DNA from: an uncultured Candidatus Binatia bacterium
GTDB taxonomy: Bacteria > Desulfobacterota > Binatia > UBA9968 > JAJDTQ01
Direction: 5' to 3'
DNA: 64,000 nucleotides
Assembly (NCBI GenBank): GCA_965213675.1
Contig: OZ243916.1
Span: 1,024,001 to 1,088,000, forward strand
Shown: positions 24,771 through 49,977 of the stretch, in pieces
How the letters are laid out: the number at the start of each line of letters is the position of its first letter
Numbering within the stretch: position 1 is the stretch's first letter
Notes under the pieces: model-generated
Seen by the model: only the letters and a program-made list of their open reading frames with translations
Told to the model about the DNA's origin: nothing
Databases searched by the model: none
Position numbers and translations under genes: made by a program

Positions 24771-26954
24771 TCACGGGGTGAGCGTTCTGGCGATACGGAA
24801 CCCGACGTCGATGAACCGGTACGTGGAGGAGTACCTGAAGCGGTTGGCGGACCGGAGGTTCCTCGGTACGTCGAACCAGGAACCGCCGCGCAACACGCGC
24901 TGGCTGCAATCCCCCCCACTCACCCAAGCACTCCCGTCAGTCGGCGCTCCTTCGTAGCTGCCGTGCCAACAGTCCTCCACCCACTCCCGTACATTCCCAT
25001 GTACATCGTCCAATCCAAATCCATTCGCCAGATAACTCCCCACTGGTATCGTCCGCTTACGATAGTGCCCCTTCCAACCCAACCCGTACGTGTAGTTCCC
25101 GTTGTAGTTCGCCTGGTCCGTCCCAATCGTCGTTCCCGTATGAAACGGCCCTGCCGTCCCCGCTCGCGCCACATACTCCCACTCCGCCTCACTCAGTAGA
25201 CGATACCCCTTCCCTGTCCGCCTCGATAACCACGCCACGTACCCCTTCGCGTCCTCCCAACTCACGTTCACCACCGGTCGCCCCCCGCGTCCCCATCCCC
25301 TATCATCCGGCCGATACCCCCGACATCCTCCCCCTGCTACACACGCATCCCACTCCCCAAAAGTTACCTCGTACTTCCCCACCGCAAACGCCTTGCCTAT
25401 CCGCACCCGGTGACGCGGCCCCTCGCCCGAGTCCCTGCCTTCTTCTCCATCCGGCGATCCCATCGTGTACTCCCCAGACGGTACCACCACCATCTCCGGA
25501 CACTCCCCGCAGTCCCGAAACTCCCGCCCAGGTCGCTCCGCCTCCTCCCGGGCCTTCCGAGCCGCCGCCGCCTTCGCTCTTGCCCTTCTCTCCCGTTCCG
25601 CGGCCTCCTGAGCCAAACGCTCCCGCTCCGCCTCCTCCTGTTTTCGCCGCGCCGCTTCCGCTCGCGCTACATCCTCCCCGATCGCCTTCAATGCGCCAGC
25701 CTGTTCCCGCGTCAGGTATCCCGTCGCCGCCAACCCTTTCTCTTTCTGCCATGCCTCAATCGCACTCCGCGTCTTCTTCCCGAACAAGCCGTCCGCATAT
25801 CCGACCCCGAGTCGCAACTTCGCCAACCCCTGCTGGATCAGTACCCGCGCGGGCCGGTGCAAACCCAATGCATCTTCCATCGCCTTATGATCCGGCGCCT
25901 TCAATGCCGGTTCTCCTGGCAATGCGTCTTCCCGCGCCGGCGCCCTCGACATCGCAGCCCCTCCGGTCTCCGCTGTGCTGTCTCTCTTGTCGTCTCCCTC
26001 CTCCTTTCCTCCCAGGGCTCCTGCCTTTGCTGCGTCCATCCCCGGCCGCGCTGGAAAACCCTTTCCTTCCGCCGCCACCGCCGCCAGCACCACTTTCCCC
26101 GATCCCATCAGGTTCGCCTTCTGCACCCGACGGTGCACCCGACGCGCCGCCCGCGTCATCCAACGGTCCAGGTAACCCTTCGCCTCCTCCGCCGTCACTC
26201 TCCCGTCCTTGTCCGCGTCCCCTTTGCCGTACAGCGCGTTCAGCAGATGATGCGTGAACAGCCCGTGCCTTGCCTTGTCGTCCCACGACGCAATCTGCTC
26301 CCCGCTCGCCGCAGTCAACGCCGTCACCTTCCGCGATGCCGCTTGCGGCAGCGTCGCCTTCACAAACACCGGGCTCGCCGAACCTATCAGTCCGCCCTCG
26401 TTCGTCCCGCCCGAAAAACACGCGTCCAGAAACACCGCCACGCTCCGGGCCTCCGCCAACTTCCCCAGGTTCTCGTACAACAAATCGATGGGATACCCGT
26501 CGTCCTCCGCCGCCTTCGGGTCAACGTCCACCGGCAGCAAATATCCCCTCTTGTCGCGTTGCCCCGGCACCCCGTGCCCTGAGTAGAACACCACCACGTC
26601 CGAGCCCCCCTCCGGGTCCAGGTAGCTCCACAAAAGGCTCCCCGATGGGTCGCTCCGGGTTCCCAAGGCATCGTACAGTTGCCGCCGCCGCGCGTCCCGC
26701 AAATCGATCACGTTCTCCGCATCGAATCCCAGCACATCCAGCACGTACCTCTTGAACGCCTCCGCGTCCCGGTGCGCATACGTTACGTCCGGAACGTCCC
26801 GGTGCTCGTAGTCCCCGTTGCCGATGATCACCGCCACCCCACGCGCATTGCGCACCTCCGCCCACGCCAATGGACTCTCATGAGTCATCCACAGGCCCGC
26901 GCCCATGGCAACTACCCAGACAACAGCCACCCGCCGCCAGCAACGTCTTCTCAT
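24771..26954 (-). CDS. Secreted caspase-like (C14) + peptidoglycan-binding + coiled-coil + FGE/SUMF1 C-type-lectin-fold protein; candidate DGR target 1
   Basis: Signal peptide; YSGHG and LDACFSG dyad; IQQGLAKL..ADGLFGKKTRSAIEAWQ; FRDCGECPEMV..PVVNVSW..RLLSEAEWEY..RGGSW..GFRIAR. Confidence 0.9.
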   Translation of the reverse strand: MRRRCWRRVAVVWVVAMGAGLWMTHESPLAWAEVRNARGVAVIIGNGDYEHRDVPDVTYAHRDAEAFKRYVLDVLGFDAENVIDLRDARRRQLYDALGTRSDPSGSLLWSYLDPEGGSDVVVFYSGHGVPGQRDKRGYLLPVDVDPKAAEDDGYPIDLLYENLGKLAEARSVAVFLDACFSGGTNEGGLIGSASPVFVKATLPQAASRKVTALTAASGEQIASWDDKARHGLFTHHLLNALYGKGDADKDGRVTAEEAKGYLDRWMTRAARRVHRRVQKANLMGSGKVVLAAVAAEGKGFPARPGMDAAKAGALGGKEEGDDKRDSTAETGGAAMSRAPAREDALPGEPALKAPDHKAMEDALGLHRPARVLIQQGLAKLRLGVGYADGLFGKKTRSAIEAWQKEKGLAATGYLTREQAGALKAIGEDVARAEAARRKQEEAERERLAQEAAERERRARAKAAAARKAREEAERPGREFRDCGECPEMVVVPSGEYTMGSPDGEEGRDSGEGPRHRVRIGKAFAVGKYEVTFGEWDACVAGGGCRGYRPDDRGWGRGGRPVVNVSWEDAKGYVAWLSRRTGKGYRLLSEAEWEYVARAGTAGPFHTGTTIGTDQANYNGNYTYGLGWKGHYRKRTIPVGSYLANGFGLDDVHGNVREWVEDCWHGSYEGAPTDGSAWVSGGDCSQRVLRGGSWFDVPRNLRSANRFRYSSTYRFIDVGFRIARTLTP
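24804..24875 (-). repeat. DGR-like variable repeat VR1 (partner at 45337-45408)
   Basis: 15 substitutions against VR2 in 24 codons, all non-synonymous, 14 at codon positions 1-2, flanked by near-identical sequence. Confidence 0.8.
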
Positions 26955-26982
26955 CGAAACCCTCCCGAACCTCGACTTGTCC

Positions 26983-27621
26983 CTACCGCGTCAGGCTCCG
27001 CGCCACGCGGAAACCAATCTCGTCCCCCCGAAACGAAAACCCCATGGTCAGATTGTCGTAGTTGCGGAATCCCGCGCGGAGTACCGACTTCCAGTCATTC
27101 CAGGAACCGCCGCGGATCACGTGCGCGGAACAAATCTCGTAGGAGGGCGGTTGCCACGAAGCATCGGGCGTCGCATCCGCCGCCGGACCGAAGCGGACGT
27201 TCCTGCCGGAGAAACGCGGCGCGGCGCTCAGCTTCTCCACCGTGATCTCGGCGCCCTCGATGACCATATGCACGTCGGTATCCGGGTTTAGGTTCATTCT
27301 ACCTAGGAGAATGGTGAGCCATTCCTCCACCTTGTGCGCCGGCGCGGAGGTGACGTAAGCGTATCTGCGCATCGCTGCATCGGAGCTCATCAGGGTGTGA
27401 CTCCGGTAACCCGGAAACTCCCCCGCCATGACGTCGATGATGTTCCGCGCCTCGCCCGGAGCAAAGTAGCGCAGCGTCACCGTGTAGGGCGTCACCAGCC
27501 CGTGCCTGCCATCTGGAAACGACTCACCGCGCTGCGCCGGCCCACCCGGCTGCACCGCGCAACCCGACAACACCCACGCAAGCACTACCGCGCCAACGAC
27601 TGTCTTCAAGAGATGTGACAC
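26983..27621 (-). CDS. Putative lipoprotein: unrecognised 'EFPGY' domain fused to an FGE C-terminal fragment
   Basis: GGAGG RBS plus GTG start, lipobox VLSGC, PYTVT..VMAGEFPGY..EEW domain, tail VIRGGSW..IGFRVAR. Confidence 0.75.
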   Translation of the reverse strand: MSHLLKTVVGAVVLAWVLSGCAVQPGGPAQRGESFPDGRHGLVTPYTVTLRYFAPGEARNIIDVMAGEFPGYRSHTLMSSDAAMRRYAYVTSAPAHKVEEWLTILLGRMNLNPDTDVHMVIEGAEITVEKLSAAPRFSGRNVRFGPAADATPDASWQPPSYEICSAHVIRGGSWNDWKSVLRAGFRNYDNLTMGFSFRGDEIGFRVARSLTR

Positions 27622-27674
27622 GTGGTGGCCTCCTTCCGTCGATGCGGTCCGCTTATCATACATTTCGGGGGGGC

Positions 27675-28631
27675 CTATTCGGAAATCGCCCTATCGTCGC
27701 CGGATCGTGTGCGGTTGGAGGTGGGGACGATCCTCTCCACGGTGATGTCCGTGCCCTCGATGGCGATGCGGACATCCCTGTCGGGATCGAAATTCATGTC
27801 CGCGAGCAGGATCGCCAGCCATTCCTCCATCCTGGCGGTCGTGGCCGTGGTGACATAGGCGTACCGCCGCACGCCCTGATCGGTACGCATCAGCTGGTGG
27901 CTACGGTAGCCCGGAAACTCCTCCGCCATGACCGCGATCATGGTCAACGCTTCTCGTCTGTCAAAGAGCCTGAAAGTGACGGTGTAGGGGGTCTCGATGC
28001 CACCACCCGGAACATCGCGGAAGCGGGCGAGCCTCGCGACCAGCCCGTTTCCGAGGGTCGTGGCGAGTTCCCTGGCGTGGCCCCCCACCACCCGGGCGAT
28101 GCAGCCCGGTTCGTCGAGGCAACCCGGGGGACCGAGGTACGACTGCTCCACTTCGACGCTGTCCTCGAACCGGTTGGAAGCCAGGTCGTAGATGTCGCTC
28201 TTCATGCGGATCCCGATGCGGGTGACGCTGTACAAGGATCTGACTTCCGCACGGACGCTGATCAACGCCAAGGCGCGCACCGCATGCGTGGCATCGGCGC
28301 TCTGGTTCATCAACTTGGCCATGTCGATGAGGTCCATCCGGGGGCGACGGTCGCGTATCTGCCAATCGAGGTCCACGGCCACCGCGGCCTCCTCGACGAC
28401 TCGGAAACCCGCGCGGCTCATTACGCCTTTAAGCTCGGCGATGACGCGCTGGAAGATCTCGTGACTGCGTGGGATGGTGGATGGGTCCTCGTCCTCGCCC
28501 GCCACGAGCACCGGCACGGCAGCGGCGCGAGCCGGCGCCTGCGCAAAGGATACGGCCGGCGTCATCAAAATGATGAGCGCCGCGAGGATCGCTCCCAGCA
28601 GAAAACCAGAGTATTGCGCATGGATCCGCAT
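27675..28631 (-). CDS. Secreted hypothetical protein with 'EFPGY' domain
   Basis: Signal peptide; full-length similarity to 32613-33674. Confidence 0.8.
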   Translation of the reverse strand: MRIHAQYSGFLLGAILAALIILMTPAVSFAQAPARAAAVPVLVAGEDEDPSTIPRSHEIFQRVIAELKGVMSRAGFRVVEEAAVAVDLDWQIRDRRPRMDLIDMAKLMNQSADATHAVRALALISVRAEVRSLYSVTRIGIRMKSDIYDLASNRFEDSVEVEQSYLGPPGCLDEPGCIARVVGGHARELATTLGNGLVARLARFRDVPGGGIETPYTVTFRLFDRREALTMIAVMAEEFPGYRSHQLMRTDQGVRRYAYVTTATTARMEEWLAILLADMNFDPDRDVRIAIEGTDITVERIVPTSNRTRSGDDRAISE

Positions 28632-28683
28632 ATTCGATTCCCTATGTTGGTTCTACCCCGTGGGTCGCGAACTCTCCGACCCC

Positions 28684-29109
28684 CTACCCGCCGCCCGGGA
28701 CGGACGGTGCTCCGTACGTCTCCACTCCGCTTGGCGCATCGATGACATTCACGGGATGGTCCCGCTGGATGGACACCACCTCGGGCATACCGAGAAGGCG
28801 CATCACCGTGGCAGCGTCGGCTTCCAACGCCATCATCGGCAGGTTCTCGAAGACCCTGGCCGATTCCTGGGCCGGGGCGTCGAGCCGCGCGAGGATGGCC
28901 TCCGCCACGATCCCGATGGCATTCGCCGACGGCGCGGCTGCGCCTGGCGGACCCGCGGCGCCTTCCGGCAACGCGAACTCGACGACGATTTTCTGACGCT
29001 CCGAGGCCTTCTGCATTCCCGGGCCGGCCGGTGCGCATGCCAGCCCCGCCGCCATGAGCAGCCATGCCGCGGTCATCCTGCCTGCGTTCCTCATGGTCGT
29101 CATCGTCAT
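28684..29109 (-). CDS. Small lipoprotein, stand-alone subtilase propeptide/I9-inhibitor-like
   Basis: Lipobox-like AGLAC; RVFENLPMMALEAD..LLGMPEVVSIQRD resembles the prodomain of the upstream S8 gene (RRYEHLPVIAMKVD..VRIWRD). Confidence 0.6.
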   Translation of the reverse strand: MTMTTMRNAGRMTAAWLLMAAGLACAPAGPGMQKASERQKIVVEFALPEGAAGPPGAAAPSANAIGIVAEAILARLDAPAQESARVFENLPMMALEADAATVMRLLGMPEVVSIQRDHPVNVIDAPSGVETYGAPSVPGGG

Positions 29110-29113
29110 GTCT

Positions 29114-31192
29114 TCAGCCTCCAATGGGCTGCCAAGCGCCTTCCGTGCCTGACGGTGCGCCCGTGCTCGGCGGTGCGTCCTTGTTCGCCGGCTCGTCTTT
29201 GGCTGGCGGTTGGCCGCCTTTGTCGCCGCCACCCGCGGCCCCGGAATCGCGATCGCTTCCATGGACCCCCAACGCCCGCAGCGCACCCGCCACGTTCAAC
29301 GTGGGCTTGCGGATGCCATTGCGTTCATCCGTGATCTGCCGCCCGGCGTTCAGCAACGCACGGTAGAGATCGCGCACCGGGCTACGCGGCGACGCCTGTC
29401 GCAACACGGCAAATGCCCCGGCCACGTGCGGCGCGGCCATGGAAGTTCCGGGAAGCTCCTTGAACGGCGCTTCGTTCGTCGGCGACCGCGGCACAGACGA
29501 CAGAATATCCACACCCGGAGCCAGAATGTCGAGCGTTGGCGCGCTGTTGGAGAAGTCCGCCACTTTCGTCTGCTTGTCCACGGCGCCGACGCTCACGATG
29601 CCACGTACGCACGCGGGATGCGCAATGCCCCGGGTCTGACCTTCGTTGCCCGCCGCGGCCACGATCACCACCCCCTCCGCGGCCAGCAGGCGCACGGCGA
29701 GGTCGTAGATGCTGTCCTGGCATGGCGTGGCGGCGTGCCGCGGCGAACCGAGGCTCATGTTGATGGACGCGATGTGGACACGCCCGCTCCGGGCCACGCC
29801 GATGAGCCAGTCCAGGGCGCCCAGCACCGTGGAATTGCTCGCGCCGAGTTTCCCGTCCACGCGACTGAAGACATTGATGGCGATCAGGCCTGCTTCCGGG
29901 GCCACGCCCGCCATATCCACGCCCCGGCCCACGGCGATGCCAGCCACGTGGGTGCCGTGGTTAGCCACCGGCCGGGCTGCTCCGGGCCCCGCCATCCGGC
30001 GTTTCCCGTTGGGGCAGCGGCTTGAGAAACAGGCCTCGGCCACGGGACGTCCGGCGATGAAAGGATGGTTCACGTCCACACCCGTGTCCACCACGGCCAC
30101 GAACGTACCTTTGCCCGTATAACCGCCTCGGTGCGGCCCGTGCGCCCCCACCATGGGTCCGCTGTCGTCCAGGTAAGGTACCACCGGGAGGTCTCGCCAG
30201 ATGCGCACCCCGGCATCGTAGCCCTTGGCCGCGGCGAGTCCCTTGGCGTCCACCTTCATGGCAATGACCGGCAGGTGCTCGTAGCGGCGCACCTCGGTCA
30301 TCCGGCCCCGTCCGCCCACGGCCTTCACGAACGCGTCACCGGTCACCGCCACCAGCCCGGCCTTCCAACCGGTGCTCCCGCTCGTCTCATCGCCGGTGAC
30401 CGGGTGCCAACCCGTCACCAGCACGGCCGCCGTCTCCTGCCCGTCGGCCGCGGCCGACAACATTTCGTACTCGTCCACCGCGGCCCGCTCGCCGCTCGAT
30501 TCCGTCGATCCTGGGGATAACGGGCCGCCTGGGACTGGCGCCGTACCCGGCGCCGCCGGGTCGGCGGCGGTCATGGACACGACGCGCTCCGACCGATCTC
30601 GGGTCTCTGGAGCGCGCCGCACCGAAGCGTTGGGCGATGCGGGAGTGTCCGACTCCTCCATGGCGCTTGGAGCAGCTTGGGCGAAGACCACAATCTCCAC
30701 CCGCCGATGTCGCGACGAGTTTGCCGGCATACCCGCCAACAGCCGATCCTCACCGTAGCCCGCGTGGCGAAACCGCGCAGGTTCCAGTCCGAGCCCCTGC
30801 ACCAGGTACCGCACCACCGCACCCGCGCGCCTTTCGGAGAGTTGCTGGTTGTACGCCGCCCTCCCGGAGGCGTCGGTGTGGCCGTAGACACCCACGTCGT
30901 AGGATCTGAGCCGATCTCCGCCCAACGCCGCGCCCAGTTCGTCCAGTTGCTGCCGCGCCCTGGCGGTCAACTCGGCCGAGTTGACCGCGAACGGCACCCT
31001 CAGGTCCACAGAACGCTGTTCCTCCCCCGTCACCGGCACCAGCCGGTCCGTCAGTTCCTGGCGGTCGACGGGTTGCGACCGCGCCGCCGCCGGCACGAAC
31101 ACCGGCGCGATCACGACAAGGAGCGCGAGCGTGAGCCCCGCCAGCCGCGACCCCGGACGTGCCCACCCTGGCATACGCGAGAACCGCTTCAT
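29114..31192 (-). CDS. OmpA-domain + S8 subtilase fusion protein
   Basis: Signal peptide; GHTDASG..NQQLSERRA..GYGE..RRVEI (OmpA_C); VAVVDTG, HGTHVAG, AAGN, GTSMAAPHVAG. Confidence 0.92.
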   Translation of the reverse strand: MKRFSRMPGWARPGSRLAGLTLALLVVIAPVFVPAAARSQPVDRQELTDRLVPVTGEEQRSVDLRVPFAVNSAELTARARQQLDELGAALGGDRLRSYDVGVYGHTDASGRAAYNQQLSERRAGAVVRYLVQGLGLEPARFRHAGYGEDRLLAGMPANSSRHRRVEIVVFAQAAPSAMEESDTPASPNASVRRAPETRDRSERVVSMTAADPAAPGTAPVPGGPLSPGSTESSGERAAVDEYEMLSAAADGQETAAVLVTGWHPVTGDETSGSTGWKAGLVAVTGDAFVKAVGGRGRMTEVRRYEHLPVIAMKVDAKGLAAAKGYDAGVRIWRDLPVVPYLDDSGPMVGAHGPHRGGYTGKGTFVAVVDTGVDVNHPFIAGRPVAEACFSSRCPNGKRRMAGPGAARPVANHGTHVAGIAVGRGVDMAGVAPEAGLIAINVFSRVDGKLGASNSTVLGALDWLIGVARSGRVHIASINMSLGSPRHAATPCQDSIYDLAVRLLAAEGVVIVAAAGNEGQTRGIAHPACVRGIVSVGAVDKQTKVADFSNSAPTLDILAPGVDILSSVPRSPTNEAPFKELPGTSMAAPHVAGAFAVLRQASPRSPVRDLYRALLNAGRQITDERNGIRKPTLNVAGALRALGVHGSDRDSGAAGGGDKGGQPPAKDEPANKDAPPSTGAPSGTEGAWQPIGG

Positions 31193-31222
31193 CCCCGACT
31201 CCTTTCTCTTCGTTCGGCCCTA

Positions 31223-32023
31223 TCAGAAGAACCGCCGGGAACGGACCGTTGCACACGCCGACCCATCGTCCGAGCGGACCTGTCGCTGGCCGAGCGGCGC
31301 GGCGCTGCATCCCTCTTCACGGCCGGAATGCCACCGATCCTGGTGAAGGGGACGACCGTGGTTCCGGCCATCGCCAGCCCGTGCGTCGTCGCCCTGTCGG
31401 AAGCCGACTCCGTCATCAAGGAAACGGGCGCCGCGCGCCTCATCCAGCAGCGATGTGAAGGCCGCGTCCTTCTGATAGCGCACCCACCAGTCCATGACCG
31501 CGGCCACATACTTCAGAGTGCCGTCGTGCATCACCGGCCCCTCGTTGCAGCGCAACAGCGGCCCACGCCGGTAGTGCGACAACGTCAGGTCCCATCGTCC
31601 ATCGTAGCGCCGGTTGAGCCGCTCCAGCAAGGTCACACCCACGCCCGCGTTGGCGCGCGGGTGCTCAAGCCCGTAGGCGCGAAGGCCCAATTCCTCCCAT
31701 GCGACGGACGGCAGCACCTGCATGACGCCCACGGCCTTCGGTGCGCTGCTTTCGCGGAAGCGCTCCTTCCGCCCGACCCGCGCCACCGCCAGCGCCAGTT
31801 CCGGCGGCACCGAGCTCTTGAGGGCCGCCGCCGCCACCGCCCGCTGCCCCACGGTCCAACGCGTCTCACCCCACACCGATCCGTGTCCGAACAGTCCCAG
31901 AAACACCGCCGCCAGCGCGAGCCGGCCCACGCTTGGAAACCGGCGCACTTGTCGTTGCCGCTGGCTGCTCATGTTCTCCTTGTCACGTGTCACGCGCACT
32001 CCGCAATCCTTCTTGTTCCCCAT
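31223..32023 (-). CDS. Transglycosylase SLT-domain-like protein
   Basis: VPPELALAVAR.., GVMQVLP, LEHPRANAGVGVTLL, YDGRWDLTLSHY, TLKYV; start uncertain. Confidence 0.75.
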   Translation of the reverse strand: MGNKKDCGVRVTRDKENMSSQRQRQVRRFPSVGRLALAAVFLGLFGHGSVWGETRWTVGQRAVAAAALKSSVPPELALAVARVGRKERFRESSAPKAVGVMQVLPSVAWEELGLRAYGLEHPRANAGVGVTLLERLNRRYDGRWDLTLSHYRRGPLLRCNEGPVMHDGTLKYVAAVMDWWVRYQKDAAFTSLLDEARGARFLDDGVGFRQGDDARAGDGRNHGRPLHQDRWHSGREEGCSAAPLGQRQVRSDDGSACATVRSRRFF

Positions 32024-32191
32024 GACATGTTTCCTTTCTCGACATTGGGCGCCACGAACGACGCTTCACGGTCCAGATGGAAGGCATTGAAGGGTATTTG
32101 TGAAAGGCGGGCAATGGCCCCTGAAAGACTGCCCAAGTCCGGCAAGGCCCCACGTTCGTTCGAGAGTTCGGTCTCCCCGTCGTCATTCCCG

Positions 32192-32516
32192 CCAGTGTGG
32201 CGTCTGGTTAATTCGCGAACGCGAAAATTCGCTATCGCCGTCCCTTCGGTCGGTCGATTGAGGAGAAACTCAGGTCATATTTGACGAAATCGAGCGGCCG
32301 AAGGGACGGATGAGAGCGGATTTGAGCCGTGAAGTCCTGCGGCGCAGGGTCCTAGTGTGGTGTCTGGTTAATACGCGACATAATCTGCGGGTCTTTTTCG
32401 CCGTCGGCTGCGTTGCTCTTCCTCGCGTGGTACACGCCACTGCTCGTCATCGCGCCTTGCCGACAACAAAAAATCCTCCGCACATTATGACGCGTATTAA
32501 CCAGACACCACACTGG
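32192..32516. mobile_element. Composite palindromic MITE-like element nested in a dRS3-like repeat
   Basis: Termini CCAGTGTGGCGTCTGGTTAAT / ATTAACCAGACACCACACTGG; internal second end CTAGTGTGGTGTCTGGTTAATACGCG at 32352; flanks GTCATTCCCG and CGCGGAATCCAG. Confidence 0.7.
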
Positions 32517-32543
32517 CGCGGAATCCAGCGTCGCCCCACATTC

Positions 32544-32579
32544 AACGTGGGTATCGGAAGCACCCGATACCCACGTTTT
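32544..32579. terminator. Probable rho-independent terminator downstream of the 32613 gene
   Basis: AACGTGGGTATCGG-aagcac-CCGATACCCACGTT-TT, 14-bp perfect stem. Confidence 0.55.
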
Positions 32580-32612
32580 GACCGGCGACGCCGCTGACTG
32601 GCGACGGTTATC

Positions 32613-33674
32613 TTACTTGAAGCGGGCGCGCTCGTCGGGCGAACGCGGCCGGTCGCCCGTGGGGACGATTTTCTCCACCAGGATGTCGGCGCCGTTGATG
32701 GCGATGCGGATCTCCCTGTCAGTGTCGAAGTTCATGTCGTCGAGGAGAATCGTGATCCACTCTTCCATCTTGTGAGGCTTGGCCGAGGTGATGTAGGAGT
32801 ACTTGCGCGTGGCTTGGTCCGAGCGCAGCAGGGTGTGTGTGTTGTATCCTGGGAACTCGTCGGCCATGACGCCGATGACGGTGAGCGCTTCCCGCCGCTC
32901 GAAGTACTTGAGCGTCACGGTGTACGGAGTCTGCATTCCATGGCCGCTGCCGGAAGCGCGCCGGCGGCTGCCGGTGACCGCGTCACCCGAGCCGCTGCCA
33001 GTCCCGGCGGAGACTCGACGCGGGGCTCCGCCGCCAGCAGCCGCATTGCGCAGGTGAGCCAACTTGGTGGCCATGGTGACGCCCAGATCCGCGGCCAACT
33101 CGCGCGCCCGGTCGCCCACGACCTCGTCGATGCAAAGCTCGCGTTGGGACAGGCAGTTGGCGGGAGCGGGGTAACCTCTTTCCGCGATCTCGTATTCCTT
33201 GGGAGCATCGTTGCCAACGACGTCGACGATCTCACCGTTGAGCCGTACACGGACTTCCGTGCGGGCGCCGTCGCCCTTGGGCTGCGCCGCTGCGCGGACA
33301 CGAATCAGGAACAGGGCTCGTACCTGGTGCGAAGCGGTATCACTTCTGTTCATGCTCTTGGCAAGATCGATCAGGTCCATCTTGGGCCGGCGATCACTGA
33401 CCTTCCAACCCAAGTCCACGGCCACCGCTTCCTCGTCCACCACGCGGAACCCCTCGCGGGCCATGTTTTCGCGCAGAACGCTGATGACGCGCCTGAAGAT
33501 CTCGCTGCCGCGCCGGACCGTGAACTTGTCATCGTCCCAAGCCGCCACCAACACCGGCACGTCGCTGTACTGATGGGTCTGCGCCACGGTGGGTCCACAG
33601 GCCGCAAGAACCAGGGCCAGGGCGGGCAGCACCGTACCCAAGGCAATTCGTGTCTTCCTCATGAAACTCATCAT
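32613..33674 (-). CDS. Lipoprotein with 'EFPGY' domain (paralogue of 27675-28631)
   Basis: AAGGAGG RBS, lipobox VLAAC; shared VPVLVA..EIF.RVI..GFRVV.E.AVAVDL.W...DRRP.MDLID and PYTVT..EFPGY. Confidence 0.8.
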   Translation of the reverse strand: MMSFMRKTRIALGTVLPALALVLAACGPTVAQTHQYSDVPVLVAAWDDDKFTVRRGSEIFRRVISVLRENMAREGFRVVDEEAVAVDLGWKVSDRRPKMDLIDLAKSMNRSDTASHQVRALFLIRVRAAAQPKGDGARTEVRVRLNGEIVDVVGNDAPKEYEIAERGYPAPANCLSQRELCIDEVVGDRARELAADLGVTMATKLAHLRNAAAGGGAPRRVSAGTGSGSGDAVTGSRRRASGSGHGMQTPYTVTLKYFERREALTVIGVMADEFPGYNTHTLLRSDQATRKYSYITSAKPHKMEEWITILLDDMNFDTDREIRIAINGADILVEKIVPTGDRPRSPDERARFK

Positions 33675-34057
33675 GTCTGCCTCCTTCTGCCGTCTTTGGA
33701 TTCGGTCATGGAACACCCATGCCACCGTGGCCATGGAAGGGCCAGACTCTGTTTCGCTCAATTGCGCGCTCCGACACGTTCCAGGATGGCGCCCAATACT
33801 TCGCTCTGTTGCCTGACCGACTCCTTTTGTTGTCGACTAGATACGCTGTCTCCTGAAGAGAATCAACATCCATCAAAGGGGCCCGTGGACCTTCGAAGAG
33901 TCCGCCGCAAGCGGGAATCCAGGCGGGAAGAAGCGGATGGGTGGGATCGCGGTTTGAAAAACATGAGCATCCGTGGACAATGCTGTCTAACTCTTCCATG
34001 GAAACATACAGGAGGGAGACGCGCATCTTCCAGCCACTTTCGTCGAATTTCCATTGA

Positions 34058-35623
34058 GTGACGGACATGTCGAGTCGGATTCTGCACGGAGCGGACGAGG
34101 TCCTTCGCGGGACATTCTGGGACTTGGCCCAGATCGGCGACCCGGAGGGACCCAAGTACCCCGAGCCGGTGCTTCGGCGGTTGGCGGCGAAGATCCTGGA
34201 GGGGCGTGCCCACGAGCCTCTGGTGTTCCGCCTTTGCCATCTGGCGCGGGCGGCCGCGTTCGCGGCGGCGGAGGGGCCGTCCGGGTGGCTGGAGTTCTTC
34301 TGCGCGCCGGGAGCAGGGCGGTCCGGCTGGGCCGCGGGTTGGCTGCGGGCACGCCTGCCGGAGGAGTTGGAAGAGCGCGGGGAAGGTGCGCCGGTCACCG
34401 CCACGGCCCAACAACTGGCACTCCGATACCGGGAAAGGGCGGAGCCGGTCACGATCTCGTTTGGCGCTGCGCCGCTTCTCGCGGCCTTCATGGAATTCCT
34501 TCTGAACGCGCTCCCTTACCCGACGCTGAGCGACGCCATGGCCGTACTGTCGCGCCCGGAACTCGGTTGGCGGGAGCTTCAGGACACGGCCAATGCCCTG
34601 TCTCGCGCCGTCTACGCGTGGCTGCGCGAGCATACCCGGCCGGTGCAGGACAGCCGTCACTTCGACGCCATGACGCGGTTTATGTCCGGTCGCAGCGGAC
34701 GCGGCGACTTCAGTGCCGAGGATATCGACGACGACGCGGTGCTGGACTTCTGGCGCGCGGCTTCGCTGGAAGCCGGCTCCGAGTTCCGCACCTTCCGCAA
34801 GACCTTTCGGACGTTCCTCCGTCTGGCTGAGGCCCTGCGCGAGGAGGCATTGCGCGACGGGCTGGAAAACCCGCAGACTCTGACCGCCGTCGCGGGACGG
34901 GCGGGTCGTGAACCCGTGGACCCGTCTTCGCCGGGGCTCGACCTGATGCACGCGTCGGGGCCGGCCACGGCTCTCTGGGAGGGTTCGGAAGAGGACAACG
35001 ACGCCTCCCCGCTGGAGGCGCTCGCGGGGTCGGAGATCAAGCTGCTCCTGGCGAGCGAGATCAAACGGCTGGCGCTCGTGGACGCCCACCCGGTATTCCT
35101 CCCGCGGCTCGCCCGCTCGCTCCTGCGCGACCACTGCTTCGGGCAGGCCCAGGGACGCATTTCCCAGGCGCTCCGCGCCAACCCGAACGCCGCCCGTGCA
35201 CTTGCCGCCGAACCGCCTGAGACCGGCTATGACCGGGAGGCGGCCGCGCTGCTGGCGCTGTCCATCCATCTCGACGATCTCCTGGTGGCCGCCGCGGCGG
35301 CCTTGGCGGGCGCAGGGGACCGCGGCGGCGCCGTGCGGCGGCTCGACTTCGAGACCCTGGGCCGGGGACGCCGTGCGCTCAAGGGATTGCGGCGCAGGGG
35401 TTTCGACCGGGTCCGGTCCGGCGAGCCCGAGGCCCTGGCCGACCTGCGGCGGGCGGCTCCCGCCATGGCGGCGCTGCGTGAACGGCTGGCGCCGCTGTGT
35501 GCGCAGCTTCGGGAGGGCGCCCCTTGGGCGCCGTGCCAGCAGGAGGACGAAACCGTGTTCGCGCGACAGTTTGCCCGCATCTACGGCGACGCGGGCGCGG
35601 GAGAAGGAGGGACGGCCGCATGA
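34058..35623 (+). CDS. Hypothetical protein (521 aa, largely helical)
   Basis: Long ORF with host-like codon use; ATGA coupling to next gene; start may be ATG 34067. Confidence 0.75.
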   Translation: MTDMSSRILHGADEVLRGTFWDLAQIGDPEGPKYPEPVLRRLAAKILEGRAHEPLVFRLCHLARAAAFAAAEGPSGWLEFFCAPGAGRSGWAAGWLRARLPEELEERGEGAPVTATAQQLALRYRERAEPVTISFGAAPLLAAFMEFLLNALPYPTLSDAMAVLSRPELGWRELQDTANALSRAVYAWLREHTRPVQDSRHFDAMTRFMSGRSGRGDFSAEDIDDDAVLDFWRAASLEAGSEFRTFRKTFRTFLRLAEALREEALRDGLENPQTLTAVAGRAGREPVDPSSPGLDLMHASGPATALWEGSEEDNDASPLEALAGSEIKLLLASEIKRLALVDAHPVFLPRLARSLLRDHCFGQAQGRISQALRANPNAARALAAEPPETGYDREAAALLALSIHLDDLLVAAAAALAGAGDRGGAVRRLDFETLGRGRRALKGLRRRGFDRVRSGEPEALADLRRAAPAMAALRERLAPLCAQLREGAPWAPCQQEDETVFARQFARIYGDAGAGEGGTAA

Positions 35624-36177
35624 GCCGGAGTTGGAACACCCTGTCGGATCCGGAACGCGACCGCGTGCGCCGCGCTTTCGTCCTGAGCGTGGGCGCGGAC
35701 GCGCTGGCGGCATCGGAAGAGCCGCCGGACGTGGTCCGTCCGCCTCGTTTCGATCAACTCTACGCCGCGGCCCGTGACCCGCTGGCGGCGCTGACCCCGG
35801 CGCTGGGCGCGGCGCTGGCAACGCACGAGCGCGCCCGCGCCACGTTCGAAGCGCTGCTTCGGGAAGCCGCGGCCTGCTGGTTCCCGGTTGCGGCCGCGGC
35901 GGCCGCCCCGGGCGGCCTCGATTCCCGCGAAGAGGGAGGTTTTCGCATCTGGCTCCGTCCCTCCAGTGCCGGCCACGGCCAAGTCTACGTGCTCCTGCGC
36001 GCGGCCGAGGGGCGCGACGTCCAGCCTCGGGCCATCGTGGCGGCGTCCCCCGCGGCGGCGCCCGTGTGTACCCCCCTTCCGGAGGACATCGACGGCGTCT
36101 ATCAACTCATCCAGCGCGAGGATTCGCCCTTGGTGCGCGCCATCCGCGATCCCGCCTCAAAGCTCGCTCTCCGCTGA
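35620..36177 (+). CDS. Hypothetical protein (185 aa)
   Basis: AAGGAGG RBS and ATG overlapping the upstream stop. Confidence 0.75.
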   Translation: MSRSWNTLSDPERDRVRRAFVLSVGADALAASEEPPDVVRPPRFDQLYAAARDPLAALTPALGAALATHERARATFEALLREAAACWFPVAAAAAAPGGLDSREEGGFRIWLRPSSAGHGQVYVLLRAAEGRDVQPRAIVAASPAAAPVCTPLPEDIDGVYQLIQREDSPLVRAIRDPASKLALR

Positions 36178-36189
36178 CGGGTCCACGTC

Positions 36190-37572
36190 GTGCGCGCCCG
36201 GGTCTACATCGCCACCACCGAGGGACCGGTCCTGGTGCAGCGGCTGGCTCCCGAGGAGGGGTTGGCCGAGGCCGAGTTGTCCGCGGTGTGTCTGGACGGC
36301 ACCCCCACCCGGTTGCCCATCACCGGCGCCTACACTTGGTTCGTACGCGATCACGTGCGCTCTTTTTCCGGCGGCGCGGCCTACCGGCTGGACCTGGACG
36401 CGCGCATCGACGGGGGAAGCAGTTGGATGCTCGGGGCGTGGGTCGCGCACCTGCTGCTGTCCGAGGGACGTCTGGCCGTGGGAGACGACAGCGCGGATGC
36501 CGCCGTGTTCGCCACCGGCGAGGTGGCGGTGGCCACCGACGCCGAGCGCCGCACCGAGGTGCGGTCCGTGGGCCACGTCACGGACAAGGTGGCGCGTCTG
36601 GCCCAGCGCGCCGCGGAGGAGGCCGCCGCCGGACGCCGGGTTGTGCTGCTGGTGCCACGGGAAAACGCGGTCGAGGCCGGAGCGGCCGTGGAACGGTTGC
36701 CGGCAACGGTCCGGGAGCGGCTGACGCTGCGCGTGGCGTCCGATACCGCGGAGGTGCGGGAGGTGTTGACCCCGCCGGACGGCGCTGCGCCGGCCACTCC
36801 TGCTGCGGCCGCGTCCGCCACGGCTTCGTCCGCCACGGAGCCGCCGACTGCGACATCGCCTGCTCGCGTCGATGACCGGCGCCGGGGAGGCAAACTGGCC
36901 GTGGCGCTGTTGGCTTGCGTCCTGCTGGGAACGGGGGCCGCCGGCTTTTGGAGTTGGCGCAACGTGGAGCGGGAGTGGGAAGACCTTCGCCTCGCCGGCC
37001 GTTACGTCGAACTGGCGCGTTCGCTGGACGGGTTTCCGCTTCGAGCCGCAGCCGACCACGTGCGCACCCGGTGGCTGGACCCGGGGGCGGCCGCGGGTTT
37101 CACGTTGCAGGTGGCGGCGCGCCGCCCCGCCGACGGCGGGTCATGCTCCGGCATGCGCTTCCGCGGGAGCGTCCTGGCGACCACGCCGGTCAACGCCTCC
37201 GGCCCGCTCTACCGCCTTACGCAACCGCGCTCGTTGTGCGGGTTGGAGATCCAGACGTCGCCGCCCGAGACTGGCACTGCCGGGTACGCCTGGATATCCT
37301 TGCGCATGGTACCCGAGGGTCCGGTCCCCGTGGCGCTGTTGCCTGCGCACCGCGTGGTCTCGAGCACGCTCGCGGACTCCCCGGTCGCGCTGTCGCTGGA
37401 CCTGCCGCTCTATGTCCAGGATCATTGGGCCTGGGCAGTCACCTCGGTGTGGGCGCCCGCGCCGTCGGAGGATGTGGCGCCGCTTCTGGAAACCGGAGAC
37501 GACGCGGCCCTTGACGCGCTGACGAAGCTGGGGCTCAGGGTGACCCGGGCCCGGGTCGAGTGGGCCCGATAA
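36190..37572 (+). CDS. Membrane-anchored Lon-protease(S16)-like domain protein
   Basis: IDGGSSW / FATGEV / VGHVTDK / LLVPREN parallel Lon motifs DGPSAG / MTGEI / IGGLKEK / LIPxEN; Ala/Pro/Thr linker, one TM helix, C-terminal domain. Confidence 0.65.
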   Translation: MRARVYIATTEGPVLVQRLAPEEGLAEAELSAVCLDGTPTRLPITGAYTWFVRDHVRSFSGGAAYRLDLDARIDGGSSWMLGAWVAHLLLSEGRLAVGDDSADAAVFATGEVAVATDAERRTEVRSVGHVTDKVARLAQRAAEEAAAGRRVVLLVPRENAVEAGAAVERLPATVRERLTLRVASDTAEVREVLTPPDGAAPATPAAAASATASSATEPPTATSPARVDDRRRGGKLAVALLACVLLGTGAAGFWSWRNVEREWEDLRLAGRYVELARSLDGFPLRAAADHVRTRWLDPGAAAGFTLQVAARRPADGGSCSGMRFRGSVLATTPVNASGPLYRLTQPRSLCGLEIQTSPPETGTAGYAWISLRMVPEGPVPVALLPAHRVVSSTLADSPVALSLDLPLYVQDHWAWAVTSVWAPAPSEDVAPLLETGDDAALDALTKLGLRVTRARVEWAR

Positions 37573-37654
37573 TTGGGACAAGAAGATTGCAAGTCATGGT
37601 GAACGAGGTCATGGCGAGAGCAGGGACAAGGCTGCTGCTGGCCGCCGTGGCAGC

Positions 37655-39511
37655 TTATCTGGACCGTGACGCCCGCCGGCTGCCGGTGGAAACGAGATCC
37701 CGCGCCACCCGGAAACCGGTGTCGAAGTTGCGGCTTTCCGCCGCATCGCTTCCGCGCGCCGCCGACCGAAGCACACCCGGATGGCTGTACCAGGAGCCGC
37801 CGCGCAACATGCGCCGGTCGCAGTCGCCCCTTCGGAGCCAGGCCGCGCCGTCGTCCGGCCCACCCGCATAGTCCTTGTGAAGACAATCCTCCACCCACTC
37901 CCAAGCGTTCCCGAGCATGTCCGACAACAGAAACCCGTTCTCCCCGTGGGTTCCCACCTCCGCGGTGCGGACTCCTTGGTCGCGACACTCGGACGTGGCG
38001 ACAGCGCGATAATTCGCCCGGAATCCCGCGTCCGCACCGTTGGCGTTCTGGCACTGCCCCGTCACCTCGTCACCCCAGTACCGCGCCGAGGTCGTGCCGG
38101 CCCGGGCCGCGTACTCCCACTCCGCCTCCGACAACAACCGGTAACCCCGGCCCGTCTTCTCCGACAGCCACGCCGCGTATGCCTTGGCGTCATCCCAACT
38201 GACGCACACCACGGGATGGCGTTGCCCTTGATCGAAGCCCGGCTCCCGCCACGAACGCGCACCATCCTGCCGCCATTGGTCCAGACTGCCGTCTCCGAAC
38301 CAGCACCCGCCCGCCGTCTCGCGTCCGCTCTCCTCCACGAAGGCGGCATACTCTTCCCGGGTCACCTCGTACTTTCCCACGGCCAACGGCGACTCAATCC
38401 GAACCTGGCGTTGCGGCCCTTCATCCTTACCTCGCGTCCTCTCATCCGGCGGCGAACCCATCGTGTACGCACCGGGGCCGATCACAATCATTTCCGGGCA
38501 CGCATCGCAGTCGCGGAAGACCTGGCCGGGCCCGAGCGGCGCGCCCGGACCGAGCCCGGCCTCAACACCCGCCATTGACTTGGCGGAAAGAAATTCCCGG
38601 ACCGCGTTGACCGGCCTGCCATGGGAACGGGAATGGACCATGACCCGCAACTCGACCTTGTCCGTCAGGAAGACCAGCTCGCCCTTCAGATCGTAGACGG
38701 GATCCCGGAGATCGCCGCCCCCCACCGACGCCCCTCGGGGAGGCGCCGCGAGCAATTCCACGACGCGGTTCCTTAGCCCCCCTGCCACATGTTCCGCGAG
38801 CGGAGACTTCCCGCGCACACGCTGATCGTCGATGGACACGTCGCCGAGCCCTCCCCGCAGGCTTCGGGCGACATCGCCCGCCACGGCGCTCAGGGCCTGT
38901 TCCAACGACAACGGCGCGTACAGCCATTTCTCTTGAAAGAACACCGACGCACTGCCCAGCCGGCTCAGGTCCGTCGCAATGGCCGCGCAATAGAGCGTGA
39001 GTCCACTCTCCACGGCGGTGCTCGTGCACGAAAGAATGATGGGCGTCTGATGGCTGCGGAGCGCCGCCTGATAGGCCTCGAACCAGTCGGCCGCGCCCGT
39101 GTTCTCCAACGCGCGCGCGACGGCTGCGTGTTTCCTGGGGTCCGTGACAGTGAACAGTCCGATCTCCCCTGTTTCCCTCAGCGCATTGATCATCCAGCCA
39201 TAAACCAACCGGCGCTGGCGACCTCCCAACGTCACGGCGCGCGGGTCCAGGGGTTGGAACGTGATCCGCTTGTCGTCTTGCGGAGCCTTCCGTATCGCGT
39301 CCGGGAACGACCTGAGCAGGTTGCCAGCCCAATCCTTGGCCGCCTCCCTGGCGTGAGCCGAACCGTCCCGTGGCCCGGCCCCTTGGCCCCAGACCGTAGA
39401 CACACCTGCCGCGGCAAGCGTCAGCGATACGAACCAAGCCCAAACCCCCGTCGCCAGACGATGCCGCCAGCGATGCTGCGTCTTCGTTGTCATCGTCTTC
39501 CTCCGGCTCAA
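37655..39511 (-). CDS. Secreted FGE/SUMF1-domain protein with unknown N-terminal domains
   Basis: Signal peptide; FRDCDACPEMI, HPVVCVSW, RLLSEAEWEYAARAG, DMLGNAWEW, RGGSW, GFRVAR. Confidence 0.88.
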   Translation of the reverse strand: MSRRKTMTTKTQHRWRHRLATGVWAWFVSLTLAAAGVSTVWGQGAGPRDGSAHAREAAKDWAGNLLRSFPDAIRKAPQDDKRITFQPLDPRAVTLGGRQRRLVYGWMINALRETGEIGLFTVTDPRKHAAVARALENTGAADWFEAYQAALRSHQTPIILSCTSTAVESGLTLYCAAIATDLSRLGSASVFFQEKWLYAPLSLEQALSAVAGDVARSLRGGLGDVSIDDQRVRGKSPLAEHVAGGLRNRVVELLAAPPRGASVGGGDLRDPVYDLKGELVFLTDKVELRVMVHSRSHGRPVNAVREFLSAKSMAGVEAGLGPGAPLGPGQVFRDCDACPEMIVIGPGAYTMGSPPDERTRGKDEGPQRQVRIESPLAVGKYEVTREEYAAFVEESGRETAGGCWFGDGSLDQWRQDGARSWREPGFDQGQRHPVVCVSWDDAKAYAAWLSEKTGRGYRLLSEAEWEYAARAGTTSARYWGDEVTGQCQNANGADAGFRANYRAVATSECRDQGVRTAEVGTHGENGFLLSDMLGNAWEWVEDCLHKDYAGGPDDGAAWLRRGDCDRRMLRGGSWYSHPGVLRSAARGSDAAESRNFDTGFRVARDLVSTGSRRASRSR

Positions 39512-39696: not shown

Positions 39697-40308
39697 CTAT
39701 AGAAATTTGACGAGGGCTACGATCAGGCCGCCTTGGGCGATCAGGGCGCCGAACAGCCATTTCACCAGTTCAGCCTTCACCGTCTCGATGGCTGCGCTGG
39801 TTTCGTGGCGCAGGGCTTCAACGCTGGCCTTTGTTTCTTGCCGTAGGGCATCGATGCTGGCCTCAACCTTGGCGATGTCCGCCTTGGTTTCTTGCCGCAG
39901 GGATTCGATGCTGGCCTCAACCTTGGCGATGTCTGTCTTGGTTTCTTGCCGCAGGGCATCGATGCTGGCCTCAACCTTGGCGATGTCCGCCTTGGTCTCT
40001 TGTCGCAGGGATTCGATGCTGGCCTTGGTCTCTTGTCGCAGGGATTCGATGCTGGCCTTGGTCTCTTGTCGCAGGGATTCGATGCCGGCCTTGGTCTCCT
40101 GTCGCAGGGATTCGATGCCGGCCCTGGTCTCCTGTCGCAGGGATTCGACCTCTGTCTTTACCGCGGCGACATCGGCTTTTGTGGCGAGGTTGGCGTTGAG
40201 GAGGGCGACATGCTCTTCGGCGAGTGTCTCGGCCTGCTTCTCGGTGAAGCCGCTCTCGGTCAGACGCTTGACGAAGCGATGCGTGTCGAAGGCGATAGCC
40301 TCAGCCAT
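39697..40308 (-). CDS. DUF1640/CCDC90-like coiled-coil protein with tandem repeats
   Basis: AFDTHRFVKRLTESGFTEKQAE, LATKAD, repeated SLRQETKA, C-terminal TM LVKWLFG. Confidence 0.85.
   Translation of the reverse strand: MAEAIAFDTHRFVKRLTESGFTEKQAETLAEEHVALLNANLATKADVAAVKTEVESLRQETRAGIESLRQETKAGIESLRQETKASIESLRQETKASIESLRQETKADIAKVEASIDALRQETKTDIAKVEASIESLRQETKADIAKVEASIDALRQETKASVEALRHETSAAIETVKAELVKWLFGALIAQGGLIVALVKFL
39830..40150. repeat. In-frame tandem repeats (33-bp and 54-bp units)
   Basis: TTGTCGCAGGGATTCGATGCTGGCCTTGGTCTC-type units (ESLRQETKASI) followed by ESLRQETKADIAKVEASI units. Confidence 0.9.
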
Positions 40309-40416
40309 GAAGCGAACATAACAACCTTACCCGTGCGGGACAAGTACAAACGAGGCTTCCAACCTGGTTCCCGGCACCAGTGAAAAGACAATCGCCGCCA
40401 TGCGCCGGCAACCCAG

Positions 40417-40674
40417 GGAAGGTCTGAACAATGGCGGTTGTGGCCGGCAAGCGGAACGGCCGACCTGTTAGTGGCGTATACGGCTCTATCCGCTTCTCCA
40501 GACGCTTCCACGGTATCAGCCCCTCCATCTTCTCCAAAAACTCCTCCTGCCGCGTCCGCCGCTTCTTCCGATCATGTTCCATCTCCGCGAAGCTCGCCTG
40601 TCTCATCGTTTCCCCTCCATGCACTGCCGTTTTCGCCATTATGACGTGCGAAAGGTCTCTTGTTCAGATCTTCA
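40417..40674 (-). mobile_element. Internally deleted IS5-family element (258 bp)
   Basis: TIRs GGAAGGTCTGAACAA / TTGTTCAGATCTTCA, flanks CCAG and CTAG, transposase N-terminus MRQASFAEMEHDRKKRRTRQEEFLEKMEGLIPWKRLEKRIEPY from 40606. Confidence 0.85.
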
Positions 40675-40805
40675 CTAGCGCACCTTGAGGTGAATTCGTT
40701 ATGAATTGCGGGAACGAAGGAGGCCACGGAATGACGGAGCGCATGCGACGCGGCGCTGACAAGACCCGTCGCGGAAATGTTCGGGCGCTCTGAACGGATG
40801 CATTC

Positions 40806-42035: not shown

Positions 42036-42243
42036 GCACCATGGAACTTCTCCCCCCTTCGCTGTTCAACTCCGCCCGCGGGCCCGTGACACCGACGCCG
42101 CACTCACTCATTCCGTGCGTCACCCCGGATCAGCTCCGGGGCCGGTTCCGGGATCCAGAAGCAGCAAGGAACCGGCCGTGCGGCCGGCATCGTCGTGTCG
42201 CATGGCCGCTGGGTCAGGGCCGGGATGGTCGGGAGGCGGTGCG

Positions 42244-47783: not shown

Positions 47784-47810
47784 CTGGATTCCCGCTTTCG
47801 CGGGAATGAC
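47784..47810. repeat. dRS3/RPE-like palindromic repeat, short form
   Basis: CTGGATTCCCGCTTTCGCGGGAATGAC, identical to 43382-43408. Confidence 0.85.
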
Positions 47811-49915: not shown

Positions 49916-49977
49916 CCCCGGAAGACGGTCATCCGTCATCCGGGACCGCTCCATTCCATTCCCAGGGAGGGTACACC

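Follow-up and report, generated by a model that had tools for sequence, protein, structure and literature searches.

Do the proteases and wall-binding proteins encoded at 24771-39511 of a 64-kb window from an uncultured Candidatus Binatia genome (contig OZ243916.1) form one system, and is its input diversified by a diversity-generating retroelement (DGR)? The window, meaning the whole stretch of 64,000 nucleotides analysed, has ~66% G+C. The cluster starts right of miaA-mutL-EamA and comprises a caspase-lectin gene (CaspFGE1), three EFPGY paralogues, a small lipoprotein, an OmpA-anchored subtilase of family S8, a lytic transglycosylase-like SLT protein, the three divergent genes op1-op3, the last of which encodes a membrane protein with a Lon-like domain, and a further lectin gene, FGE2. 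A second caspase-lectin gene, CaspFGE2, stands further to the right. These genes form a conserved set that recurs, reshuffled, in other genomes and metagenomes, and in a close relative a retroelement lies within the cluster. Taken together, the cluster has the appearance of a recognition or defence system of the envelope that has not been described before.

Recurrence of the gene set

Three comparison loci were obtained from a scan of genome contigs and eight from a scan of metagenome contigs, and all window proteins were compared with the 11 loci by tblastn. The op1-op3 genes were spanned in eight of them (L004, L005, L006, L009, L011, L012, L014, and L015), and the remaining three (L008, L010, and L013) were incomplete. 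L009/L011 and L012/L014 are near-duplicates, leaving about six distinct versions among the eight. In every spanning locus, op1, op2, and op3 were contiguous and co-oriented, and both a caspase gene and an SLT gene were present, the latter directly upstream of op1 in six of the eight. The co-occurrence of homologues elsewhere, on which a first-pass annotation of the sequence had staked its case, was found. The whole set, including the S8 domain, the small lipoprotein, EFPGY genes, and the OmpA domain, was recovered from L004, L005, and L015 in an order shuffled relative to the window. L004 consisted almost wholly of it, with three caspase-FGE genes, FGE2, three EFPGY genes, op1-3, SLT, OmpA-S8, and the lipoprotein. 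Proteins of the spanning loci were 49-72% identical to those of the window. The locus records are labelled Binatia, Thermodesulfobacteriota, and Nitrospinaceae, and homologues were also named from metagenome-assembled genomes of Defluviicoccus and Rhodospirillaceae.

The C-terminal modules attached to the caspase differed between loci, with three PEGA domains, PG_binding_1, and MORN in L011 and PEGA plus FGE in L015, which fits a variable sensor position. IS3-type transposases flanked two related loci, and the stretch downstream of the set in L011 carried a LuxR-type regulator and transposase genes. Two neighbours were seen beside related loci. In L012 (6-3889), the cluster adjoined an alpha-2-macroglobulin gene (bMG10, TED) paired with one for PBP1C, a combination that acts in the periplasm against proteases and in wall repair. 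In the Nitrospinaceae locus L006 (1297-2373), two open reading frames (ORFs) matching successive parts of ARPP-1, possibly one split gene, stood between the caspase-FGE gene and SLT-op1-3.

The distribution of the set was patchy. op1 was found in one of 301 genomes of a phylum sample, in two of 151 genomes of a class sample, and in two of nine genomes of the genus, the last two counts including the window's own genome (G000). The second op1-bearing genus member was G731, the record of L005. Its op1, op2, and op3 were 63%, 58%, and 56% identical to those of the window, against 78-85% for mutL, and its cluster lay at about 2.26 Mb, ~1.15 Mb away from mutL at 1.11 Mb. That this copy has diverged further than mutL and sits elsewhere on the chromosome suggests horizontal transfer. 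The L004 copy (72%) was nearer to that of the window than the congeneric one. G659 and G731 retain the CoA-transferase-miaA-mutL synteny, G291 retains miaA-mutL, and nothing beyond mutL was shared in these three genomes. The patchy occurrence of op1, the diverged and relocated G731 copy, the closer L004 copy, and the end of synteny at mutL suggest that the cluster spread horizontally and was frequently lost. A plasmid collection gave no match to op1 or op3, and none was obtained from viral contigs, where the diversity of the broad op1 alignment made it unsuitable for scanning.

Caspase-lectin genes and the retroelement

Identity between CaspFGE1 and CaspFGE2 is 52% for the caspase portion and 78% for the C-terminal portion. 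The final 600 nt of the two genes hold 41 differences, of which 15 fall within a 72-nt core (14 at codon positions 1 or 2) and 26 are spread over the other 528 nt. The variable codons of the last ~110 nt encode the C-terminal tip of the FGE domain (170.8 and 171.9 bits). No such pattern of variable codons was present in the FGE domain of FGE2.

In the close relative G659, a congener that lacks op1 and EFPGY, the retroelement lies inside the cluster itself and targets the caspase-lectin genes. An S8 fragment and a C-terminal fragment of op3 are followed there by a full caspase-PGB-FGE gene, a bAvd-like ORF (37.5 bits, just below the cut-off of 40), a reverse transcriptase (RT; RVT_1, 64 bits), a template repeat (TR), and an OmpA gene, and 19 of the 24 mismatches between the TR and its variable repeat (VR) are at TR adenines. 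In G301, the 3' end of a target, an ORF for an RT, and a TR rich in AAC were found together on a 4-kb contig, and mismatches to this TR fell on TR adenines in 14 of 16 cases for the local VR and in 16 of 20 and 15 of 18 cases for two caspase-FGE genes of L004; the third L004 gene does not fit this pattern. G302/G731 had a similar cassette, and in the first ~75 nt its TR and the window VRs agree wherever the TR has no adenine. When the window VRs were compared with the TRs of the relatives, mismatches were at TR adenines in 17 of 29 positions for CaspFGE1 and 16 of 28 for CaspFGE2, and the first ~75 nt differed at adenines only.

Logan contigs from four runs of one study broke up across the FGE/VR region (24793-25517), where alternative short contigs were seen. 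Since sequences of the paralogue at 45.3 kb would also map there, the break-up carries no information on live diversification. Among the sequencing runs listed, none held RNA.

EFPGY_A ends in a fragment of ~50 aa from an FGE/lectin domain (26983-27150, minus strand; RGGSW...GFRVAR), which is absent from the L004 homologue and may have been left behind by recombination with a lectin gene. The fragment was considered as the missing TR and was ruled out, there being no DNA similarity to the VRs.

The proteins and their predicted properties

Signal peptides, lipoboxes, and catalytic motifs were read by eye from the translations, and the features are collected in Table 1. On the minus strand, SLT, OmpA-S8, the small lipoprotein, EFPGY_B, EFPGY_A, and CaspFGE1 form, in this order, a six-gene run with gaps of 7-52 nt by ORF coordinates. 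EFPGY_C lies upstream of the run and is divergent from op1-op3, and FGE2 is convergent with op3.

Table 1 Features of the cluster and of its surroundings, in window positions
Feature	Position	Strand	Description
CaspFGE1	24771-26954	-	Signal peptide, Peptidase_C14 (52.2 bits), PG_binding_1, charged coiled linker, FGE-sulfatase (170.8 bits) (Pfam)
EFPGY_A	26983-27663	-	Predicted lipoprotein; C-terminal EFPGY domain and ~50-aa C-terminal piece of FGE domain (E 6.8e-4, below cut-off)
EFPGY_B	27675-28631	-	Predicted secreted; N-terminal domain and EFPGY domain
Small lipoprotein (lipo200)	28684-29106	-	140 aa; no Pfam match
OmpA-S8 subtilase	29114-31192	-	OmpA-like peptidoglycan anchor, pro-region, Peptidase_S8 (156.1 bits) (Pfam; NCBIfam)
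SLT protein	31223-32023	-	Lytic transglycosylase-like; Pfam SLT (34.3 bits, cut-off 21.3); first gene of the six-gene run
EFPGY_C	32613-33761	-	Predicted lipoprotein (translation); family of 121 protein clusters
op1	34058-35623	+	521 aa, predicted cytoplasmic, all-alpha; no Pfam match
op2	35620-36177	+	185 aa; no Pfam match; start overlaps op1 stop by 4 nt
op3	36190-37572	+	460 aa; predicted Lon-fold domain, one transmembrane helix, periplasmic beta-rich domain; no Pfam match
FGE2	37655-39511	-	Signal peptide, ~330-aa N-domain without known family, FGE-sulfatase (201 bits) (Pfam)
Multi-copy repeat, possible insertion sequence (IS) remnant, right border	40301-40639	-	No Pfam match
CaspFGE2	45304-47454	-	CaspFGE1 paralogue sharing its three domains (C14, PG_binding_1, FGE); beyond 24771-39511

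The gene content listed in the first-pass annotation for 24771-39511 was recovered by Pfam and from the translations, as were its three EFPGY paralogues and its three wall-interacting modules (PG_binding_1, OmpA, and SLT by Pfam). The gene at 32613 proved to be the third EFPGY paralogue and not the SLT protein. The proposed transmembrane Lon-like protease gained a fold match, one transmembrane helix, and an invariant Ser/Lys pair. Two other proposals stood in part. For the 'IS remnant' at the right border, the core DNA recurred at seven further genomic places (86-95% identity over 110-195 nt), and Pfam gave no match. The lipoprotein called 'propeptide-like' was colinear with the subtilase pro-region in a BLASTP alignment that was non-significant (E 0.28), and had no Pfam match either; its gene adjoins the subtilase gene, following it, in three other loci.

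Both caspase-lectin genes matched C14 (52.2 and 50.2 bits; Pfam cut-off 21.4), and the motifs YSGHG and DACFSG/DTCFSG were present, which we take to be the His/Cys catalytic dyad of C14. The NCBIfam model NF047832 (caspase, EACC1-associated type) reached 78 bits, under its curated cut-off of 140, and no search was aimed at an EACC1 partner. In the subtilase, the motifs DTG, HGTH, and GTSMAAP presumably represent the Asp/His/Ser triad of S8. The catalytic Glu of the SLT protein could not be placed with confidence by eye. A second, divergent OmpA-S8 gene (82.6% nt and 78% aa identity) was seen on contig C11 (4186 bp) of the same assembly, where it and an EFPGY_A-like fragment are joined straight to M20/DUF6282 (98.9% nt). 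This contig corresponds to window positions 27369-27507, 29159-31249, and 40689-42318 and lacks SLT, EFPGY_C, op1-3, FGE2, and the coiled-coil gene described below; its right junction lies just beyond the multi-copy repeat at 40.3-40.7 kb. C11 represents either a variant strain or an assembly chimera.

For op3, a homologue search yielded 77 relatives, and an AlphaFold model built from an alignment of 52 homologues had a mean predicted local distance difference test (pLDDT) score of 81.5. The model comprised an N-terminal domain (residues 1-195), a long helix with the membrane segment, and a beta-rich C-terminal domain. A Foldseek search of the PDB with the N-terminal domain matched 3wu6_F (E 2.6e-4, probability 1.00); 12 matches had E <= 0.001, and Lon was the hit in all rows listed. 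VIA aligned the domain to 1xhk_B over 142 residues (Z 12.8, root-mean-square deviation 2.9), with Lon domains at Z 12.8, 12.4, and 11.7 and RadA, ComM, BrxL, and CalpL among the lower-scoring matches. The modelled N-terminal domain thus has the Lon proteolytic fold. S78 and K133 were invariant in the 52 op3 sequences, within a DGGxSW...ATGEV...K...P..N pattern that resembles the Lon motifs. The two residues are, by sequence, a candidate for the Ser-Lys catalytic dyad; non-catalytic Lon-like domains (RadA, ComM, and BrxL) are also among the fold matches. Neither Pfam nor NCBIfam gave a match for op3, a sequence profile of op3 found nothing relevant among PDB sequences, and its 460 aa contain no AAA+ ATPase domain, unlike LonA/LonB. 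Because basic residues precede the helix, an N-terminal signal is absent, and two C-domain cysteines (C319 and C350) are invariant, the Lon-like domain would lie in the cytoplasm and the C-terminal domain in the periplasm. The latter gave only weak immunoglobulin- or macroglobulin-like matches (VIA, Z about 7).

op1, op2, op3, EFPGY, and the FGE2 N-domain make up at least five conserved protein families without a Pfam model. Even at lenient thresholds, Pfam returned nothing for the EFPGY proteins, op2, the FGE2 N-domain, and the small lipoprotein; among the cluster proteins, only the FGE domains matched PHROGs, and profiles of op1, op2, and EFPGY found nothing relevant among PDB sequences. op1 had 64 close relatives with 51-76% identity over most of the protein and two shorter partial matches, none of them with a Pfam match. 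Its profile gave 583 matches at E <= 0.001, 167 of them at E <= 1e-30, among 1.84 billion representatives, and the family names retrieved were 'hypothetical protein' throughout. Twenty distant members were scanned, of which one carried an N-terminal DnaG-type CHC2 zinc finger and one a weak TPR match. The former, P0161 (699 aa), joins the zinc finger (121 bits) to an op1-like body and belongs to a cluster of three members. The op1 model (pLDDT 77.8) was all-alpha. No convincing match emerged from Foldseek against the PDB (best E 0.31), BFVD (best E 0.11), or the Atlas (0.83, noise level), and a wide VIA search retrieved helical bundles only (best Z 6.2), with residues 314-489 alone well tested. 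A joint complex prediction of op1, the op3 Lon domain, and op2 as partner gave no verdict and is not used as evidence.

The three EFPGY paralogues share a DNA repeat family, as seen when the window DNA was compared with itself, as well as related translations. EFPGY_C had 121 relatives, one of them from the cultured Aestuariispira insulae and labelled 'Flagellar assembly T-like protein' in one source. Its Atlas matches, to DUF2066-, DUF6175-, and CsgG/LpoB-like lipoproteins, are leads only.

Several repeats were observed around the cluster. The minus strand at 39697-40308 encodes a coiled-coil protein of 203 aa (CCDC90-like, 74 bits) that carries a membrane anchor at its C-terminus; its gene is made of 33- and 54-nt tandem DNA repeats and has at least four further partial genomic copies. 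Copies of a ~60-nt palindromic element resembling repetitive extragenic palindromic (REP) sequences occur at 9676-9743, 43263-43435, 47747-47823, and 56574-56640, and two sets of them flank the M20 / DUF6282 / Fe-ADH / CaspFGE2 block. Tandem Amidohydro_2 paralogues (49915-52201, plus strand) share 73-81% DNA identity over several blocks. Scans of the window for tRNA genes and Rfam families returned nothing.

Possible roles and known counterparts

A role in conflict or recognition through regulated proteolysis, exerted by one conserved and horizontally mobile envelope cluster, is considered to have an even chance of being correct. The variable lectin tip would recognise a periplasmic ligand that is foreign or changing, and binding would lead to proteolysis at the wall by the fused caspase and the wall-anchored subtilase, the latter perhaps restrained by its own pro-region and, through the weak link noted above (E 0.28), by the small lipoprotein. 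The SLT protein would open the wall locally, and the Ser/Lys domain of op3 would couple the periplasm to op1/op2 in the cytoplasm, in either direction. Phage, competitor, or host could be the other party in such a conflict or recognition event, and the cluster would then be a periplasmic counterpart, free of nucleoside triphosphatases (NTPases), of DGR-lectin/caspase conflict systems. In line with the first-pass annotation, we infer that the proteases may act as a cascade and that their role may lie in defence, competition, or host interaction. A more specific version is tentative and on the whole doubtful: a periplasmic, immune-like, NTPase-free device in which caspase-fused hypermutable lectin receptors would patrol the wall and the binding of an invader would start a caspase-subtilase-Lon-like relay to two cytoplasmic proteins of new families. 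The cluster would have a hypervariable receptor fused to a death-type protease in the periplasm, tethered to the wall and joined to a new membrane Lon-fold family. Its compact gene set offers a direct test of what bacterial DGR diversification serves.

A number of observations weigh against a conflict or recognition role of the cluster. The S8, EFPGY, and small lipoprotein genes were found in just three of the eight spanning loci; the other five, two of them on short contigs, had no S8 or EFPGY match, and L011 lacked them over 9 kb downstream. Within the genus, caspase/FGE homologues occurred in 16 of 21 genomes, whereas EFPGY occurred in two of 21, so the modules are not strictly interdependent and a lectin-caspase/DGR unit can exist alone. 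G000, G301, and G302 share a phylum, and G302 also shares the genus, so that the loci are not fully independent witnesses; two phylum-level searches built around G302 and G301 drew on the window's own phylum again. The M20, DUF6282, and Fe-ADH metabolic genes stand between CaspFGE2 and the main block. The catalytic residues are sequence-based assignments, and Pfam and PADLOC recognised no NTPase, nuclease, pore-former, or other effector among the window proteins. PADLOC-DB v2 gave only generic 'caspase' and 'subtilase' models and weak ZorB-type OmpA matches, and 10 of 12 cluster proteins had no match. Lastly, the window's own assembly (97.7% complete) contained no RVT_1 match, no bAvd match, and no TR. 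The RT of the G301 DGR, used as a query, matched only two VRs there, through the overlap of RT and TR, and the VR repeat had only three matches, all of them coding 3' ends. With no RT, Avd, or TR found, diversification may be extinct here; an unassembled retroelement is possible at this level of completeness. The DGR-diversified input proposed in the first pass therefore holds for three related genomes, with their RT, TR, and adenine mismatches, and is echoed by the window paralogues, which differ in the same codons, and not for the machinery of the window's own assembly. The window caspase-lectin genes resemble targets that have become frozen or that an unassembled element serves in trans.

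Among the alternatives, adhesion or host interaction combined with wall remodelling, in place of defence, is unlikely though it fares best. Here, the lectins would bind host, prey, or matrix glycans, and the proteases and SLT protein would process or insert envelope proteins. The three wall-binding modules and the SLT domain would suit this role, as would the 'Flagellar assembly T-like' label of an EFPGY relative, the Atlas leads to CsgG/LpoB-type lipoproteins, and the alpha-2-macroglobulin and PBP1C genes beside L012; bacterial DGR targets, moreover, are often surface ligand-binding proteins. However, the PG_binding_1 tether and the failure of Pfam to find outer-membrane or secretion components speak against display at the surface, and the fusion of caspase to lectin and the cytoplasmic Lon-like module are left unexplained.

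Self-destruction from the inside out is somewhat less probable again. op1/op2 would sense a cytoplasmic event, the Lon-like protein would signal outward, and the wall proteases and SLT protein would lyse the infected cell. The predicted cytoplasmic location and broad family of op1 are compatible with such a sensor, and the CHC2 zinc finger in one of 20 distant members hints at nucleic-acid binding, but that fusion is a single cluster of three members. Similarly, the periplasmic enzymes are all degradative and the phage defence proteins BrxL and CalpL, both with Lon folds, are among the fold matches of op3, but binding and cleavage are predictions only, and a hypervariable periplasmic receptor is hard to square with a purely cytoplasmic trigger.

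Least probable is that a DGR target array, a subtilase pair, and the op1-op3 operon were gathered without joint function in a variable, IS-rich region, as the caspase/FGE genes of 16 of 21 congeners without the rest, the IS3-type transposases flanking two related loci, the multi-copy repeat at the border of the window cluster, the end of synteny at mutL in G291, G659, and G731, and the direct joining of a divergent subtilase gene to M20 on the 4.2-kb contig C11 might suggest, since caspase and SLT genes stand beside op1-op3 in all eight spanning loci despite reordering, 49-72% identity, and differing phylum labels, and G659 keeps its S8 and op3 fragments directly beside the caspase-DGR cassette and the OmpA gene.

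The preferred reading, a conflict or recognition role through regulated proteolysis, can be set beside several known systems. The subtilase resembles those with an I9-type propeptide or inhibitor in that its S8 domain follows a pro-region and that a small neighbouring protein shows a non-significant resemblance to this region. It differs in its N-terminal OmpA anchor, and Pfam sees no I9 domain in either the subtilase or the small lipoprotein. The Lon-fold Ser/Lys protease CalpL acts in type III CRISPR signalling. op3 shares with CalpL (7qda_A) a Lon fold without an AAA+ motor and a gene position beside small partner proteins, which are possible substrates. In contrast to CalpL, neither a SAVED sensor nor a sigma or anti-sigma factor was found here, op3 is predicted to be a membrane protein with a periplasmic domain, and its fold matches Lon itself (Z 11-12.8) better than CalpL (Z 8.2).

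The failure of the first-pass annotation to recognise a named system was borne out by the generic PADLOC matches and by the literature searched, in which no system of this gene content was found; the supplementary neighbourhood tables of Kaur et al. (2020, 2021) and large DGR target surveys were outside that search. The nearest described systems are NTP-dependent conflict systems in which DGR-linked FGS/lectin sensors and caspase or trypsin effectors are organised around MoxR/vWA or STAND NTPases (PMC7159879, PMC8195603, PMC10907252, as far as the portions available of these papers extend). Like them, the window cluster combines an FGE/lectin fold bearing a C-terminal variable region with a caspase-family protease, several paralogues occur per genome, RT and TR are adjacent or remote, and OmpA or PEGA wall-binding domains appear in some of the versions described there. 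Unlike them, it has no detectable MoxR, vWA, VMAP, STAND NTPase, or EAD adaptor; neither a MoxR ATPase with vWA nor a STAND NTPase was found by Pfam among the 30 window proteins scanned. The sensors of such systems were mostly predicted to be cytoplasmic, with a few periplasmic or secreted (Dore et al. 2024, PMC10907252, in the available part), whereas the sensor-protease here is predicted to be exported and tethered to peptidoglycan. Its partners, namely the subtilase, the SLT protein, the EFPGY lipoproteins, and the membrane Lon-fold protein, are not mentioned in the same portions of those papers. Cyanobacterial DGRs provide a second parallel, diversifying orthocaspase-CLec proteins that include remote targets (Vallota-Eastman et al. 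2020, PMC7517822). As far as the accessible text of that study goes, these proteins share with CaspFGE1 and CaspFGE2 an N-terminal caspase-type peptidase, a C-terminal DGR-variable lectin fold, and the occurrence of paralogous and remote targets. They belong to another lineage, whereas the proteins described here carry a predicted signal peptide and PG_binding_1 and are encoded within a conserved multi-gene envelope cluster.

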